From Escherichia coli (lineage in GTDB: Bacteria > Pseudomonadota > Gammaproteobacteria > Enterobacterales > Enterobacteriaceae): a DNA stretch of 64,000 nucleotides. Positions 39,866 through 46,619 of this stretch are shown here, one piece after another. The position numbers and the translations under genes were made by a program. The stretch is taken from the NCBI RefSeq assembly GCF_013315695.1, contig NZ_CP054353.1; one strand, 5' to 3'. Under the pieces are notes generated by a model. The model searched no databases. It was not told the origin of the DNA and was given only the letters and a program-made list of their open reading frames with translations. Each line of letters opens with the position of its first letter. The first letter of the stretch is position 1.

Positions 39866-40270
39866 ATGGATCAGGTCGTTGTTTTTCAAAAGATGTTTGA
39901 GCAAGTGAGAAAAGAGCAAAACTTCTCCTGGTTTTATTCAGAATTAAAACATCACCGTATTGCACATTACATTTATTATCTAGCTACGGATAACATCAGA
40001 ATTATTACTCACGATGACACGGTTTTGTTATTAAGAGGAACCAGGAACCTGTTAAAAGTTAGTACGACCAAGAACCCTGCTAAAATAAAAGAGGCCGCAT
40101 TGCTTCATATTTGCGGAAAATCTACATTTCGGGAATACTGTTCAACACTGGCAGACGCGGGCGTTTTCCGGTGGGTTACTGATGTTAATCATAACAAACG
40201 CAGTTACTACGCCATTGATAATACGCTTTTATATATTGAAGATGTAGAAAACAATAAACCATTAATCTAG
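39866..40270 (+). CDS. ycgX: DUF1398-family protein YcgX
   Basis: 134 aa matching YcgX. Confidence 0.8.
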   Translation: MDQVVVFQKMFEQVRKEQNFSWFYSELKHHRIAHYIYYLATDNIRIITHDDTVLLLRGTRNLLKVSTTKNPAKIKEAALLHICGKSTFREYCSTLADAGVFRWVTDVNHNKRSYYAIDNTLLYIEDVENNKPLI

Positions 40271-40481
40271 CTAAAGTTGGATGCTTAAAAAATGCTTCAT
40301 AATTCAGTAAGGCATTAGCATAATGGAAATAAAAGTGCAGAGACTATTCATATGGATGAGTAATACTATCTTTTTATTGCCACCCATAAATAATCACCAG
40401 ATCAATACTATCAACTTGATATTTGAAATGTGATCACTTGACTTTTGATACGTTATTTTATAGCGGTTAACATATTTATAA

Positions 40482-40529
40482 AAAACAATGGGCGTGCCAT
40501 ACGCCCGTTTCAATACTTAACGCACATGT
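40482..40529. repeat. icd-terminator-like direct repeat, copy A (left boundary of iraM cassette)
   Basis: aaaacaaTgggcgtgCCatacgcccgtttcaataCttaacGcacatgt, about 90% identical to the sequence at 41350..41395. Confidence 0.7.
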
Positions 40530-40974
40530 GTTTTGGTTTAGTCATCATCCGGTTATATGTATTTTAGCCAGGAATGGGTTAAACCATTCCTATATAACTA
40601 AAAAATTGAAACCTTATTCTCATGTCATGCTTATATTCGTCATTATCGTTATATAAAAAGGCCAACCATAATGTTTAGCAAATTGGCACAAAGTAGTATA
40701 AAGGCTATGTTTTAATTACAGGATGTTCAGTCATTTGAATGTATAACATTTTAGCTAAACAAATCTAAAACGAAGTGAATAATTTAATGTTTTCACTAAA
40801 TCTCATTTTGTTTAATATCTATTGAGATTTCTTGCTTTAAATTTTGTTTTATATAAACAATGGTTTTAATTTTTAATTAATTTGTTTTTTGAGGGGGTAA
40901 TATACTCATATGCAAAATCAAGAAATAAAAATCCTAATGAACCATATTAAATACCGTGGGATAAGACATAACAA

Positions 40975-41298
40975 ATGAAGTGGATAGTAATTGACACGGT
41001 AATTCAACCTACATGCGGTATATCTTTTTCAGCCATATGGGGTGATATGAAAATGATCATCTGGTATCAATCCACTATATTTCTTCCTCCTGGCAGGATA
41101 TTTACACCGGTTAAGTCTGGTATTATCCTTAAGGATAAAGAATATCCTATTACTATTTATAACATCGCACCATTCAACAAGGATTTATGGAGTTTACTCA
41201 AAAGCAGTCAAGAGTGTCCTCCAGGAGAAAGCAAAATAACAAATAAATGTTTGCATAATAGTTGCATTATAAAAATATGCCCATATGGGCTCAAGTAA
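40975..41298 (+). CDS. iraM: anti-adaptor protein IraM (inhibits RssB-mediated RpoS degradation)
   Basis: 107 aa [23 protein letters not shown]... matching IraM/YcgW; very AT-rich surroundings. Confidence 0.85.
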
Positions 41299-41349
41299 TG
41301 GGCTTCATATAAATATTCTCGACATGCTATTAATAATATCCACATAAAT

Positions 41350-41400: not shown

Positions 41401-42651
41401 TTACATGTTCTTGATGATTGCATCACCAAACTCTGAACATTTCAGCAGTTTAGCGCCTTCCATCAGACGTTCGAAGTCATAGGTTACGGTCTTGGCATTG
41501 ATTGCGCCTTCCATACCTTTAACAATCAAGTCTGCGGCTTCAGTCCAGCCCATATGGCGTAACATCATCTCAGCGGAGAGAATAATAGAGCCTGGGTTTA
41601 CTTTGTCCTGACCGGCATATTTCGGCGCAGTACCGTGGGTGGCTTCAAACAGGGCGCATTCGTCACCGATGTTTGCGCCAGGGGCGATACCGATACCGCC
41701 AACCTGCGCTGCCAGGGCGTCAGAAATGTAGTCACCGTTCAGGTTCATACAGGCGATAACATCATATTCAGCCGGACGCAGCAGGATCTGTTGCAGGAAT
41801 GCATCAGCAATCACGTCTTTAATGACGATCTCTTTGCCGGTGTTCGGGTTTTTAACTTTCAGCCACGGGCCGCCGTCGATCAGTTCACCGCCAAACTCTT
41901 CACGCGCCAGCTGGTAGCCCCAGTCTTTAAACGCGCCTTCGGTGAACTTCATGATGTTGCCTTTGTGCACCAGGGTCACAGAGTCACGATCGTTAGCAAT
42001 TGCGTATTCGATCGCTGCACGAACCAGACGTTTGGTGCCTTCTTCAGAACACGGCTTAATACCGATACCGCAATGTTCCGGGAAGCGAATTTTCTTCACG
42101 CCCATCTCTTCACGCAGGAATTTAATCACTTTCTCAGCGTCGGCAGAGTCTGCTTTCCATTCGATACCCGCATAAATGTCTTCCGAGTTTTCACGGAAGA
42201 TAACCATATCGGTCAGTTCAGGGTGTTTAACCGGGCTTGGAGTGCCCTGATAGTAACGTACCGGACGCAGGCAGATGTAGAGATCCAGTTCCTGGCGCAG
42301 AGCAACGTTGAGAGAGCGAATACCGCCACCAACCGGAGTGGTCAGCGGGCCTTTGATGGCAACGCGATATTCACGAATCAGATCAAGGGTTTCAGCAGGT
42401 AGCCAGACATCCTGACCATAAACCTGTGTGGATTTTTCACCGGTGTAAATTTCCATCCAGGAGATTTTACGCTCGCCTTTATAGGCTTTCTCGACTGCAG
42501 CGTCGACCACTTTCAGCATGGCTGGGGTTACATCTACACCGATTCCATCACCTTCAATGTAAGGGATAATCGGATTTTCAGGAACGTTGAGTTTGCCGTT
42601 TTGCAGGGTGATCTTCTTGCCTTGTGCCGGAACAACTACTTTACTTTCCAT
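41401..42651 (-). CDS. icd: NADP-dependent isocitrate dehydrogenase
   Basis: 416 aa from [40 protein letters not shown]. Confidence 0.95.
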
Positions 42652-42824
42652 TCACCTCTCCTTCGAGCGCTACTGGTTTGCTCGTCTGCCACCACGTTGC
42701 ATATGCGTTTGCGTCCTGCGATACGGATGCGTTAGAGCAATTTTTTGTTAATGATTTGTAATTGGCTTGTCAATACTACCCTATTGTTTGCCGTCATGAA
42801 AGATGCGCGTTATTAGGCTATAAT

Positions 42825-42896
42825 GCGGCAATTCATAATCTCTGAAAATACCATGCAAAAAACTTCTTTTAGACCAAAGACAGTATTTTTCTGACC
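42825..42896 (+). pseudogene. orphaned ancestral 5' end of rluE (23 codons), separated from the rest of the gene by an islet
   Basis: Encodes MRQFIISENTMQKTSFR then diverges to PKTVFF*; MRQFIISENTMQKTSFRN is the K-12 RluE N-terminus by recall. Confidence 0.55.
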
Positions 42897-43232
42897 TTCA
42901 AATAAGGTATTAAATATCAATAATTTATATCAGATTTTAAGCAATAAAAAAAACCACCAGAGATAACTAACAAGGTGCTATTTGGTCAAAATTTGACATT
43001 ACTCGATTCAGCGACTATCTCACTTTGAGCACTATTGGGAAAATTATCAAAAGTCATAGTTGAAGCGACAAGCAACGAGTAAATTATGGCATCCCCCCTT
43101 TTTGAGGTTCACATGAAACGCTTTGCACTGATAGCTGTGAAACTCGTTGCCTTTACTGGTTCTGCATCTGCTGCAACCGAAGAAATCAACTTCAAGTAAC
43201 AGAAACACTATATAACAATGGAGTGTTGACAA

Positions 43233-43682
43233 ATGGATACTACCGAAGAACGCAATGGAACATATTTCTACAGAGGACACCCGAACCTGTCCAAAATAGA
43301 ACTACTCAACGTCATATTCCTTGAAGAATTCTGTAAGGAATTGGGGATTGATTCGGTATCAGGTGCAGCAATCTTATCTGGTCAACCGTGGCTGGGTACA
43401 AGAGCGAAGCCGCAAGGGGCAACCCTGGGAACAAGTGTTGTCTCAAAGTATGCGCGTATACTGATGAGAGATGCACGCATGCCTTTTGGTATTTCTGTTC
43501 ATACACCAGTGGGTGTAAGGATGCAGAAATCTAATAAGCTTGCTGCAATTATCGCTCGTTGGGTCCCGTGGATTGGTTGGGCTTCACTGTCGATGAGTCT
43601 TTACAGGGTTTCGACTCGTACCCAGGAAAAATACAATCTGATTGCCAAACCTCAAGACCGTATTAAGTGGACTTCCTTCTAA
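43233..43682 (+). CDS. hypothetical protein, first gene of an overlapping two-gene cassette
   Basis: 149 aa ORF; below-genome-average GC by eye; hydrophobic stretch AAIIARWVPWIGWASLSMSL near the C-terminus; 16-nt overlap with the next gene. Confidence 0.5.
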   Translation: MDTTEERNGTYFYRGHPNLSKIELLNVIFLEEFCKELGIDSVSGAAILSGQPWLGTRAKPQGATLGTSVVSKYARILMRDARMPFGISVHTPVGVRMQKSNKLAAIIARWVPWIGWASLSMSLYRVSTRTQEKYNLIAKPQDRIKWTSF

Positions 43683-44017
43683 TGGCGACAACAATCACAG
43701 ACGAAGTTTTAGCACTGTTCCGTGATGAGATTCCAGGTTATCAGGATGACCACGGGAAGGAAATTCCGTTAGAACTGGACTCTGATTTGTTCGACTATCC
43801 ACGAGATGATTTAGAGGACGCTATACGGAAATACAAAGAGAGGTTTGGGATTAACCTGGATAATCTGGACTGGTCTTTGTACCTTCCATGGGAGTCTGCA
43901 CCATTGCTTCAACGATGGTTCAAGCTCAAGCGGGAAGAGGTAGAAACAACACGTTTACCGTTAACTGTACGGATGTTTGCAGAATCAGCAGAAGCGGGAA
44001 AATGGCTGTATCAGTAG
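43667..44017 (+). CDS. hypothetical acidic protein (possibly DUF1493-like), second gene of the cassette
   Basis: 116 aa ORF; acidic LELDSDLFDYPRDDLEDAI segment and C-terminal ...GKWLYQ; family assignment from memory only. Confidence 0.5.
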   Translation: MDFLLMATTITDEVLALFRDEIPGYQDDHGKEIPLELDSDLFDYPRDDLEDAIRKYKERFGINLDNLDWSLYLPWESAPLLQRWFKLKREEVETTRLPLTVRMFAESAEAGKWLYQ

Positions 44018-44337
44018 AATAAAAAAGAAGGCTGCGATGCCCCTCTTATTACTGCTGATGATGGTAGTGGTAAAGCATCATCCTAAACTTGAACAGTGAA
44101 GTGCTGTCACCCATCAGTAATACAGAAACACTATTTTTCATACCAGTATTTATTCAATTCATCAATGTAAAATGTGTTCATTGGGCCATATTTATCACCA
44201 TGCAGCCACACAACCGCTGCTCACTAACCCAGGTATTGATGAAACCGCGCTGAAGAGCCTGAACCCTGAACCTCTAACGAGTACCTTAAAAGTCCAATGC
44301 AATCCGACACTGTGCTACCCTCTGCGTAAAGCTCTAT

Positions 44338-44988
44338 TTGGAATTTACCATGAAATACTTTAGCGATTCTAAATCTTCTTTTAGAAAAAAACAGGTTAGT
44401 CGACTAAACTCGCAACACTCCACTAAGCGTAAACCTGAAAACCAGCCCACGCGTGTGATCCTGTTCAATAAACCCTACGATGTTCTTCCGCAGTTCACCG
44501 ATGAAGCCGGACGCAAAACATTAAAAGAATTCATCCCGGTTCAGGGCGTTTATGCAGCAGGTCGTCTTGACCGCGATAGCGAAGGGTTACTGGTGCTGAC
44601 CAATAACGGCGCGTTGCAGGCGCGTTTAACCCAGCCGGGTAAACGCACCGGAAAAATCTATTATGTGCAGGTGGAAGGTATTCCCACACAAGACGCACTT
44701 GAAGCCTTGCGCAATGGCGTAACCTTAAATGATGGCCCTACCCTGCCCGCAGGCGTAGAGCTGGTTGACGAACCCGCGTGGTTATGGCCGCGGAATCCAC
44801 CAATTCGTGAACGCAAAAGTATTCCCACCAGCTGGCTTAAGATCACCTTATATGAAGGACGTAATCGCCAGGTGCGCCGCATGACCGCCCATGTTGGTTT
44901 CCCCACGCTGCGACTGATTCGCTATGCGATGGGTGATTACTCTTTGGATAATCTTGCCAACGGCGAATGGCGAGAAGCGACAGATTAA
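44338..44988 (+). CDS. rluE: 23S rRNA pseudouridine synthase RluE with a replaced, divergent N-terminus
   Basis: 216 aa; from [19 protein letters not shown] onward matches RluE; first ~35 residues differ from the K-12 N-terminus; alternative start ATG 44350. Confidence 0.8.
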
Positions 44989-44997
44989 GGACGCAAA

Positions 44998-46619
<1,622 letters not shown>

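Follow-up and report, generated by a model that had tools for sequence, protein, structure and literature searches.

How an integrative element might enter the 5' end of a housekeeping gene and leave that gene working is the question raised by rluE in the stretch of Escherichia coli DNA analysed here, a 64,000-nucleotide segment of contig NZ_CP054353.1 (referred to below as the window). The gene order is icd (minus strand, 41401-42651) followed by the plus-strand genes rluE-nudJ-mnmA-hflD-purB, and within the 5' end of rluE there is an islet of about 1.5 kb which, we propose, is probably what decay has left of an element that had inserted at rluE codon 17 by means of a large serine recombinase. 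Alignment with a K-12-type genome (L001) is collinear from icd through position 42873, is then interrupted by approximately 1.5 kb without counterpart, and restarts at about 44431. To the left of the islet the K-12-type codons 1-17 of rluE (MRQFIISENTMQKTSFR) are kept at 42825-42875 with identity at all 51 positions, after which the orphaned frame runs into PKTVFF and a stop codon at 42894-42896, giving a 23-residue open reading frame (ORF). To the right, rluE is complete, and the NCBIfam RluE equivalog profile (cutoff 284) recognises its product with a score of 469.6 bits. A first-pass annotation made from the sequence had described the islet and the retained K-12 start, both of which the alignment bears out, and had rluE resume at 44338 with a new N-terminus; the substitute N-terminus stands, but the TTG at 44338 is not its start, RefSeq placing this at the ATG at 44350. 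The suggestion that the islet restores the 5' end of its target also holds, with the N-terminus that begins at this ATG being of a kind found in three Citrobacter RluE proteins (P0121-P0123) and in the Citrobacter islands described below. The GC content, judged low by eye, is 0.33-0.47 in the islet and 0.50-0.54 in icd and rluE. The view that the islet is horizontally acquired foreign DNA is supported. The features of the locus are listed in Table 1.

An exact 11 bp core, CTTCTTTTAGA, is present at both junctions (42863-42873 and 44375-44385). A repeated 11-mer is expected about 0.4 times by chance within 1.8 kb and is not rare in itself; this one carries weight because both copies fall exactly on junctions that are set independently by the empty site. 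The direct repeat in fact extends imperfectly to 21 bp, of which 18 are identical (CTTCTTTTAGAccAAAgACAG on the left and CTTCTTTTAGAaaAAAaACAG on the right), so that the att-like repeat proposed from the core is longer than first described. As in attL and attR, the two junctions have a short stretch of identity in common, and the corresponding attB is uninterrupted in relatives. The block that differs from K-12 continues for a further 45 nt past the right repeat, to 44430, and this patch of rluE coding sequence corresponds to the K-12 peptide NHQVKRFSSQRSTR. Comparisons with K-12-type E. coli, with Escherichia sp. E1V33 and with a non-coli enterobacterium (L078) all place the right boundary just past the patch, where the strongly conserved part of rluE begins. 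The patch is probably a hitch-hiking piece of the poorly conserved RluE tail of a donor.

The distribution of the islet was determined in 5,426 complete E. coli genomes, in which it was called present at a query coverage of at least 80%. It occurs in 373 (about 7%), with at least 99% identity in 340 of these, whereas 4,989 have an uninterrupted K-12-type site and two (O157:H7 TR01 and HS-02) have an uninterrupted site that carries the patch; no other cargo is seen at the site in any of the 5,426. Empty sites thus amount to 4,991 of about 5,363 informative genomes, and the outcome that would have undone the first-pass proposal, an ancestral 1.5 kb segment with no empty site anywhere, is not what is found. 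The K-12-type RluE N-terminus (MRQ..ENTMQKTSFR) is common to Salmonella, Citrobacter, Enterobacter and Kluyvera, and the insertion is therefore the derived state. These empty sites and outgroup N-termini, together with homologous Citrobacter islands at the same codon, support horizontal acquisition.

The two patch-bearing empty sites have hybrid junctions, AGAccAAAaACAGG / TTTAGAccAAAaACAGG in TR01 and AGAaaAAAaACAGG / TTTAGAaaAAAaACAGG in HS-02, in which the crossovers are at two different points within the repeat. Downstream of the junction both have the patch and the rluE of the window allele, HS-02 over all 460 nt compared and TR01 over the first 300 nt or so, and the window haplotype is the nearest to HS-02 in the flank on either side (99.5% and 99.1%). 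Independent clean losses of the islet are the best reading of these two sites, which are equally compatible with recombinase-independent deletion between the repeats. Such clean deletions are what would be needed if the islet were ancestral and the K-12-type locus derived from it, but they leave the patch behind, and 4,989 genomes do not have it. The K-12-type N-terminus of the four outgroup genera also contradicts an ancestral islet, and the islet itself has a lower GC content than its flanks and holds an orphaned copy of exactly the K-12-type start; we regard this explanation as extremely improbable.

An evolutionary context for the islet is provided by related islands at the same position in Citrobacter. 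One of these (L076) has the order icd, orphan start, a 120-residue secreted-protein ORF, hcp, DUF8209 gene, DUF1493 gene and rluE, and a second (L073) has icd, orphan start, secreted-protein ORFs of 120 and 117 residues, an IS110 element and rluE; in L073 the flanking repeat is 16 bp and exact. Both share conserved left and right arms with the window islet (Table 1). The short reading frame near the left end of the islet is a truncated form of the secreted-protein gene that is intact, at 120 codons, in the Citrobacter islands. The alternative RluE N-termini of Citrobacter, MRYYNDSKSSFR, MSNARKYSSDSKTSFR and MSNARKYYNDSKTSFR, are of the type KY..DSK.SFR and pass directly into host-type sequence. 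From these sequence comparisons the E. coli islet is seen to be a reduced member of a family of conserved-arm islands at rluE codon 17. Metagenomes were also searched for island variants, where a first pattern gave no matches and a second gave 59, of which 10 are rluE islands, all of the E. coli type, and the remainder are chance matches; a search of IMG/VR gave no further island variant or intact element.

A third, Citrobacter-type island (L139) contains an intact large serine recombinase of 555 residues, encoded on the minus strand, with Resolvase and Recombinase domains and a match to the phrog_95 integrase family (E 4.5e-64). Its ATG and the substitute rluE start are 40 nt apart. L073 retains the first 66 codons of the gene, 91% identical and cut by the IS110 element, and L076 retains residues 4-23, with a score that none of 500 shuffles matches. 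In the window a frameshifted vestige is present in which the segment for residues 5-20 matches IGYMRYSSKLQVAGST and, after the frameshift, that for residues 24-36 (QRGFINTWVSEQR) matches QKSLINKWVEDQK, both of L139; these two segments are the two best matches to the first 40 residues of the L139 recombinase in all six frames of the 64 kb window. The recombinase gene or its remnants have the same position and orientation in L139, L073, L076 and the window, and it is on this synteny, and on the chain of homology through L076 and L073, that we infer the E. coli vestige to be a recombinase remnant. The first-pass statement that no integrase is present is accordingly right as to an intact gene and wrong as to total absence. 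No copy of the recombinase gene is found in complete E. coli genomes, and in the phage and plasmid collections even the closest relatives share no more than 26-29% identity with it. A literature search on rluE islands, and on serine recombinases in connection with rluE, returned nothing relevant.

The L139 recombinase is accompanied, at 188-2257, by ORFs of 358 and 311 residues (phrog_21267, function not assigned), and a remnant of the 358-residue gene is kept in L076 between the secreted-protein ORF and hcp. These two ORFs may be the original cargo of the element. The small secreted proteins of the Citrobacter islands (120 and 117 residues; L073 6574-7291 and L076 7516-7878) are paralogous, begin with a signal peptide (MKRFPLI...) and have no family match; a role as orphan immunity proteins of the periplasm is conceivable.

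The attachment site was reconstructed from L073 as an attP of approximately 65 bp, which includes AAATACTCCAGTGATTCTAAAACTTCTTTTAGAAGAATCATAGTATTTT. Directly around a 15 bp core, AAAACTTCTTTTAGA, are perfect 7 bp inverted arms, TGATTCT and AGAATCA, which would occur by chance at a fixed position with a probability of about 1e-4. An outer inverted pair, AAATACT/AGTATTT, recurs across the islands, with L076 having GATACT and the window, L073 and L139 the exact form; in the window AGTATTT, at 42882-42888, pairs as an inverted repeat with the AAATACT of the right arm. The half of the attachment site that adjoins the integrase gene would therefore encode the conserved substitute peptide KY..DSK.SFR.

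A plausible scenario, and the one that we consider likely, is that the element had its attachment site beside its integrase gene, and that a start codon and some 12 codons are, by coincidence, encoded in the integrase-side half-site (...AAATACT..GATTCTAAA-CTTCTTTTAGA). Integration at rluE codon 17 would have displaced the native start, leaving it orphaned at attL, while at attR the sequence of the element re-headed rluE. In E. coli the integrase gene would subsequently have been deleted down to the frameshifted vestige of some 30 codons, with truncation of the small secreted-protein gene as well, to give an islet that is no longer self-mobile. The islet would now be inherited vertically and, through homologous recombination in its conserved flanks, exchanged as a block among Escherichia lineages and neighbouring species, the 45 nt patch probably having hitch-hiked from the rluE tail of a donor in one such exchange, and recombination between the 21 bp repeats would occasionally remove it.

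Block exchange of this kind is indicated by sequence divergence. Escherichia sp. E1V33 (L018) has the islet at the same junction, and its islet and patch are 1.6-4.3% diverged from the window, whereas the remainder of rluE is 9% and nudJ 6.5% diverged. The contrast is sharper in L078, in which the nudJ-purB region is just 84% identical to the window, mismatches per 100 nt number 8-17 in icd and 19-27 in the remainder of rluE, yet the block matching window positions 42555-44455 has 0-8 mismatches per 100 nt, about 1.5% overall and lowest over the two cargo genes. On this pattern the L078 block is a transfer of the whole block between species by flank recombination, and homologous recombination in the flanks appears to account for the present spread of the islet better than site-specific transfer does. 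We note that L078 also has an insertion between rluE and nudJ, a 312-residue ORF (7473-8411) with a signal peptide and no family match. Among the islet-bearing genomes (window 44431-45459 compared with L006 and L018) divergence is unusually high for rluE past the patch (5-9%) and nudJ (3-6.5%) when set against icd (2-3.5%), and the DNA to the right of the islet has the look of a hot spot for recombination or diversity.

Several observations weigh against a serine-recombinase origin. The E. coli vestige is weak when taken alone, in that the score of its first segment is reached by 5 of 500 shuffles in a search limited to the right non-coding region, and by 13 of 500 in one over the whole islet; the fragment is very short and Pfam does not recognise its 33-residue translation. 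The element-side arm of attL in the window (ccAAAgAC) is without the inner inverted arm that is present in L073. The left end of L139 was not recovered, the contig ending in IS-like sequence, and the attL and attP of the active element are reconstructions. The donor of the patch was not found: protein searches, in which the RluE N-terminus and the complete RluE served as queries, match it only in islet-bearing Escherichia and L078.

An alternative history would dispense with site-specific integration altogether. DNA from upstream of rluE in another enterobacterium, together with the 5' end of its rluE, could have been captured by homology-facilitated illegitimate recombination, with the conserved part of rluE as the right anchor and microhomology at the left join, in which case the direct repeat is nothing other than two homologous rluE starts. 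A divergent patch of 45 nt is what a one-sided homologous anchor leaves, whole-block transfer through flanking recombination demonstrably happens, and no E. coli copy has an intact recombinase. However, the Citrobacter islands share the junction and have host-type sequence straight after TTTAGA, with no anchor patch needed; four independent islands have the serine recombinase gene or its remnants beside the substitute start; inverted arms lie symmetrically in the reconstructed attP; and no genome was found in which the islet sequence is native DNA upstream of rluE. As an account of how the islet arose we consider such a capture quite improbable, and the mechanism probably explains the later spread and not the origin. 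We also considered an integron cassette and rejected it, there being no tyrosine-recombinase ORF in or next to the islet and, in the repeat analysis, no attC-like imperfect palindrome at the cassette end. An Rfam scan of 42500-44600, at E values up to 1, gives no RNA or structured element.

Table 1. Features of the rluE islet and its junctions, in window coordinates.
Feature	Coordinates	Strand	Basis or remarks
Native rluE promoter-like site, ATGAAA-17-TATAAT, now facing the islet	42796-42824	+	Consensus scan, 10/12; shared with K-12; putative promoter
Orphan K-12-type rluE start	42825-42896	+	Identity to K-12 and reading of the frame
Left direct-repeat copy (putative attL core), CTTCTTTTAGA then ccAAAgACAG	42863-42883		Junction kept in Escherichia sp. 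E1V33, L078, L073 and L076
Conserved left arm	42874-43172	+	79-81% identical to the left arms of L076 and L073
Truncated secreted-protein gene remnant, 28 codons (MKRFALIAVKLVAFTGSASAATEEINFK, then stop)	43113-43199	+	Nucleotide homology to the 5' ends of the L076 and L073 ORFs
STM2901-family / DUF8209 (PF26636) gene, 149 aa; candidate Hcp-carried type VI effector	43233-43682	+	NCBIfam NF045926
DUF1493 (PF07377) gene, 111 aa; candidate immunity protein with acyl-carrier-protein-like fold	43682-44017	+	
Putative recombinase N-terminal vestige, frameshifted, ~30 codons (about residues 5-36, region of the catalytic R-x-S motif)	44214-44301	-	Matches to L139
Conserved right arm upstream of the substitute start	44247-44349	+	79.8% identical to L076 9898-10251 (357 nt, E 2.7e-89)
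Element-supplied substitute start, first 12 rluE codons; holds AAATACT (44353-44359) and GATTCT	44350-44385	+	
Functional rluE with chimeric N-terminal tail, 212 aa	44350-44988	+	RefSeq start ATG 44350; NCBIfam profile
Right direct-repeat copy (putative attR core)	44375-44395		
Patch, 45 nt of rluE tail coding sequence	44386-44430	+	13 mismatches to K-12; travels with the islet

The replaced part of RluE consists of 12 residues from the element and about 14 from the patch. The crystallised truncated RluE (PDB 2OML) begins at window residue 24, so that only residues 24-26 are replaced inside it, and the new N-terminus is tolerated because almost all of the replaced residues precede the crystallised catalytic core. 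All of the cargo is oriented with rluE and is downstream of the native promoter-like site, and no plus-strand terminator is predicted between this site and rluE; it is plausible, from this arrangement, that the cargo genes and rluE are co-transcribed from the native rluE promoter.

The islet does carry genes of its own, as the first-pass annotation had stated, and there are two intact ones. The first encodes a protein of the STM2901 family (NF045926, 156 bits, cutoff 110), with DUF8209 (PF26636) recorded on all of its homologues, and the second a DUF1493 protein (PF07377, E 1.3e-29 over residues 4-110). They adjoin, with the DUF1493 start overlapping the upstream stop codon (TAATG), and both are intact in every islet copy examined. 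The STM2901/DUF8209 family is confined to Enterobacterales, and nucleotide homology between the islet and modules in other genera is restricted to the two genes (43233-44027).

The relatives of this pair suggest what it may do. We surveyed 50 related loci in a collection of one genome per species, and a full hcp gene lies 12-20 nt upstream on the same strand in 26 of them, representing several Enterobacterales families. Remnants of hcp are upstream in a further three, eight have hcp nearby in another arrangement, and 13 have none nearby, while the pairing of the putative effector gene with DUF1493 is kept in 44. The order hcp, putative effector, putative immunity gene (hcp-E-I) is also seen in Klebsiella pneumoniae beside mutS, in 'Enterobacteriaceae bacterium 89' and in metagenomic relatives; modules in Salmonella, beside SPI-1 (pathogenicity island 1 of this genus), and in Cronobacter keep a 3' remnant of hcp, and at the rluE site itself the Citrobacter island L076 has hcp-E-I. 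Placement next to hcp, a feature of type VI secretion effector/immunity modules, is thus found in the relatives and not in the window islet. On balance we lean, from gene order and family membership, towards the islet cargo being an hcp-less type VI effector/immunity pair, which may owe its retention to immunity or may use a resident Hcp for delivery.

This assignment has observations against it as well. A tblastn search finds no hcp or hcp remnant inside the window islet; the structural model of the 149-residue protein is of low confidence and gives no fold match; and we found no published toxicity, secretion, immunity or other function for STM2901, DUF8209 or DUF1493. Sequence searches of the PDB with both cargo proteins give no match, and PADLOC reports nothing for the cargo proteins, the small ORF or the L139 proteins. 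The pair could instead be some other two-gene selfish or defensive module, such as a toxin-antitoxin system, or a small carrier-protein metabolic pair. The overlapping two-gene layout suits toxin-antitoxin systems, the lack of a nearby hcp in the window copy and in 13 of the 50 loci, and of a published function for either family, is in keeping with such a role, and a cytoplasmic, acidic protein with the carrier-protein fold of DUF1493 is unusual as an immunity protein. Against this are the tight hcp-E-I arrangement in 26 of the 50 loci across several families, with hcp remnants in hcp-less copies, the size of the 149-residue product, which is within that of known Hcp cargo, and the absence of any PADLOC or Pfam toxin-antitoxin match. 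A true acyl or peptidyl carrier is further disfavoured in that the phosphopantetheine-bearing serine of DUF1493 is not conserved. We therefore rate a role outside type VI secretion as rather unlikely.

A bolder combination of these ideas would have the STM2901/DUF8209 proteins as unrecognised Hcp-carried antibacterial toxins whose DUF1493 antidote is a mimic of acyl carrier protein, and the rluE-targeting enzyme as a new serine integrase whose attachment site doubles as the start codon and N-terminus of its target gene. Taken as a whole and resting on sequence comparison, this is speculative and unlikely to be correct in all of its parts. If the antidote is such a mimic, the toxin would attack acyl carrier protein or a step of lipid synthesis that depends on it.

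We note several other features of these modules. Some hcp-E-I modules (L069-L072) contain two tandem DUF1493 genes that are about 30% identical (for example L069 1661-1990 and 2015-2344), as expected if spare immunity genes accumulate. The Hcp proteins of the modules in Klebsiella, Pantoea, Erwinia, Rouxiella and Mangrovibacter (L028, L030-L034 and L037; hcp at approximately 5507-5986) are 97-99% identical, and in several species the nucleotide homology begins about 70-85 nt upstream of hcp and stops just past DUF1493, which suggests that hcp-E-I travels from genus to genus as a discrete cassette of about 1.35 kb. A fused pseudogene, in which an hcp 5' fragment is joined to a DUF1493 3' fragment, is present in a genomic island of E. 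coli AR_0128 and about 40 other genomes (L004 7789-8111), adjoining a His-Xaa-Ser (hxsABCD) radical-SAM system, ParB-like genes and a relaxase.

Within the window islet an exact 13 bp direct repeat, ACAGAAACACTAT, brackets both cargo genes (43199-43211 and 44122-44134). The sequence following the second copy (44123-44144) resembles the left end of the islet (42875-42896) at 17 of 22 positions, and a similar motif, ATAGATACACTAT, is located about 47 nt upstream of hcp in the Klebsiella, Pantoea and Mangrovibacter modules. A nested insertion or deletion could have left the repeat as its trace, or the repeat could be a promoter element or have arisen by chance. A wider likeness of the non-coding parts of the islet to the Klebsiella-type hcp promoter region was dropped, the shuffle tests not being significant.

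The islet belongs to known kinds of element, gene-end-restoring integrative elements and orphan type VI modules, and is not a new kind. In staphylococci, SCCmec and related elements integrate at the end of the rRNA methyltransferase gene rlmH (orfX) by means of the large serine recombinases CcrAB. Like these, the proposed rluE element is a serine-recombinase element at the extremity of an rRNA-modification gene whose frame stays intact, with short flanking direct repeats and degenerate remnants that lack the recombinase. The target of SCCmec is a 3' end, whereas the islet is at a 5' end, so that the element must supply a start codon and N-terminus; the rluE recombinase is moreover at most 26-29% identical to the relatives found, and the E. 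coli copy is only 1.5 kb and immobile. Closer at hand, e14 and phage 21 integrate into icd, e14 with a tyrosine integrase and with replacement of the icd 3' end. The rluE islet resembles them in its insertion within a housekeeping gene of the same chromosomal neighbourhood, with a substitute gene end that keeps function and a displaced fragment left behind, and differs from e14 in replacing a 5' end and in its serine-type integrase. The window itself has no e14 prophage: the segment downstream of icd (39866-41300) is very AT-rich (GC 0.25-0.35), and icd is followed by iraM, ymgK and ymgL, which are present there with ycgX as in the identical RefSeq genome AF3.

Hcp-linked type VI modules are exemplified by hcp-tae4-tai4 of Salmonella pathogenicity island 6 (SPI-6) and by Hcp-dependent cargo effectors, and the Aux3 type VI module of Vibrio cholerae is a domesticated, truncated version of a larger integrase-bearing element. 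As in Aux3, a putative effector/immunity pair is kept here in an att-flanked remnant of a larger mobile element, although the organism, the recombinase type and the target are different. The relatives of the islet cargo, with hcp, a small protein of ~17 kDa and an overlapping or adjacent small gene, are built like Hcp-linked ('orphan hcp') modules (PMC8262886), but STM2901/DUF8209 and DUF1493 have no published function, the fold of the putative immunity protein is that of a carrier protein, and hcp is missing from the E. coli copy.

The rluE islet thus offers a clear natural case in which a housekeeping gene would have stayed active although an integrative element entered its 5' end, with attachment-site DNA providing a new start and new N-terminal codons. 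It also illustrates a route by which such an element may be reduced to an immobile islet of 1.5 kb that is then passed on by ordinary homologous recombination, dragging a 45 nt piece of a donor gene along with it. The recombinase is a previously undescribed putative serine integrase with a defined and conserved target in Enterobacteriaceae, and may be of use as a tool for genome engineering. The uncharacterised gene pair is widespread, occurring in Salmonella (next to SPI-1), Klebsiella, Citrobacter, Enterobacter and about 7% of E. coli, and its consistent linkage to hcp makes it a testable candidate for a family of type VI effector and immunity proteins.

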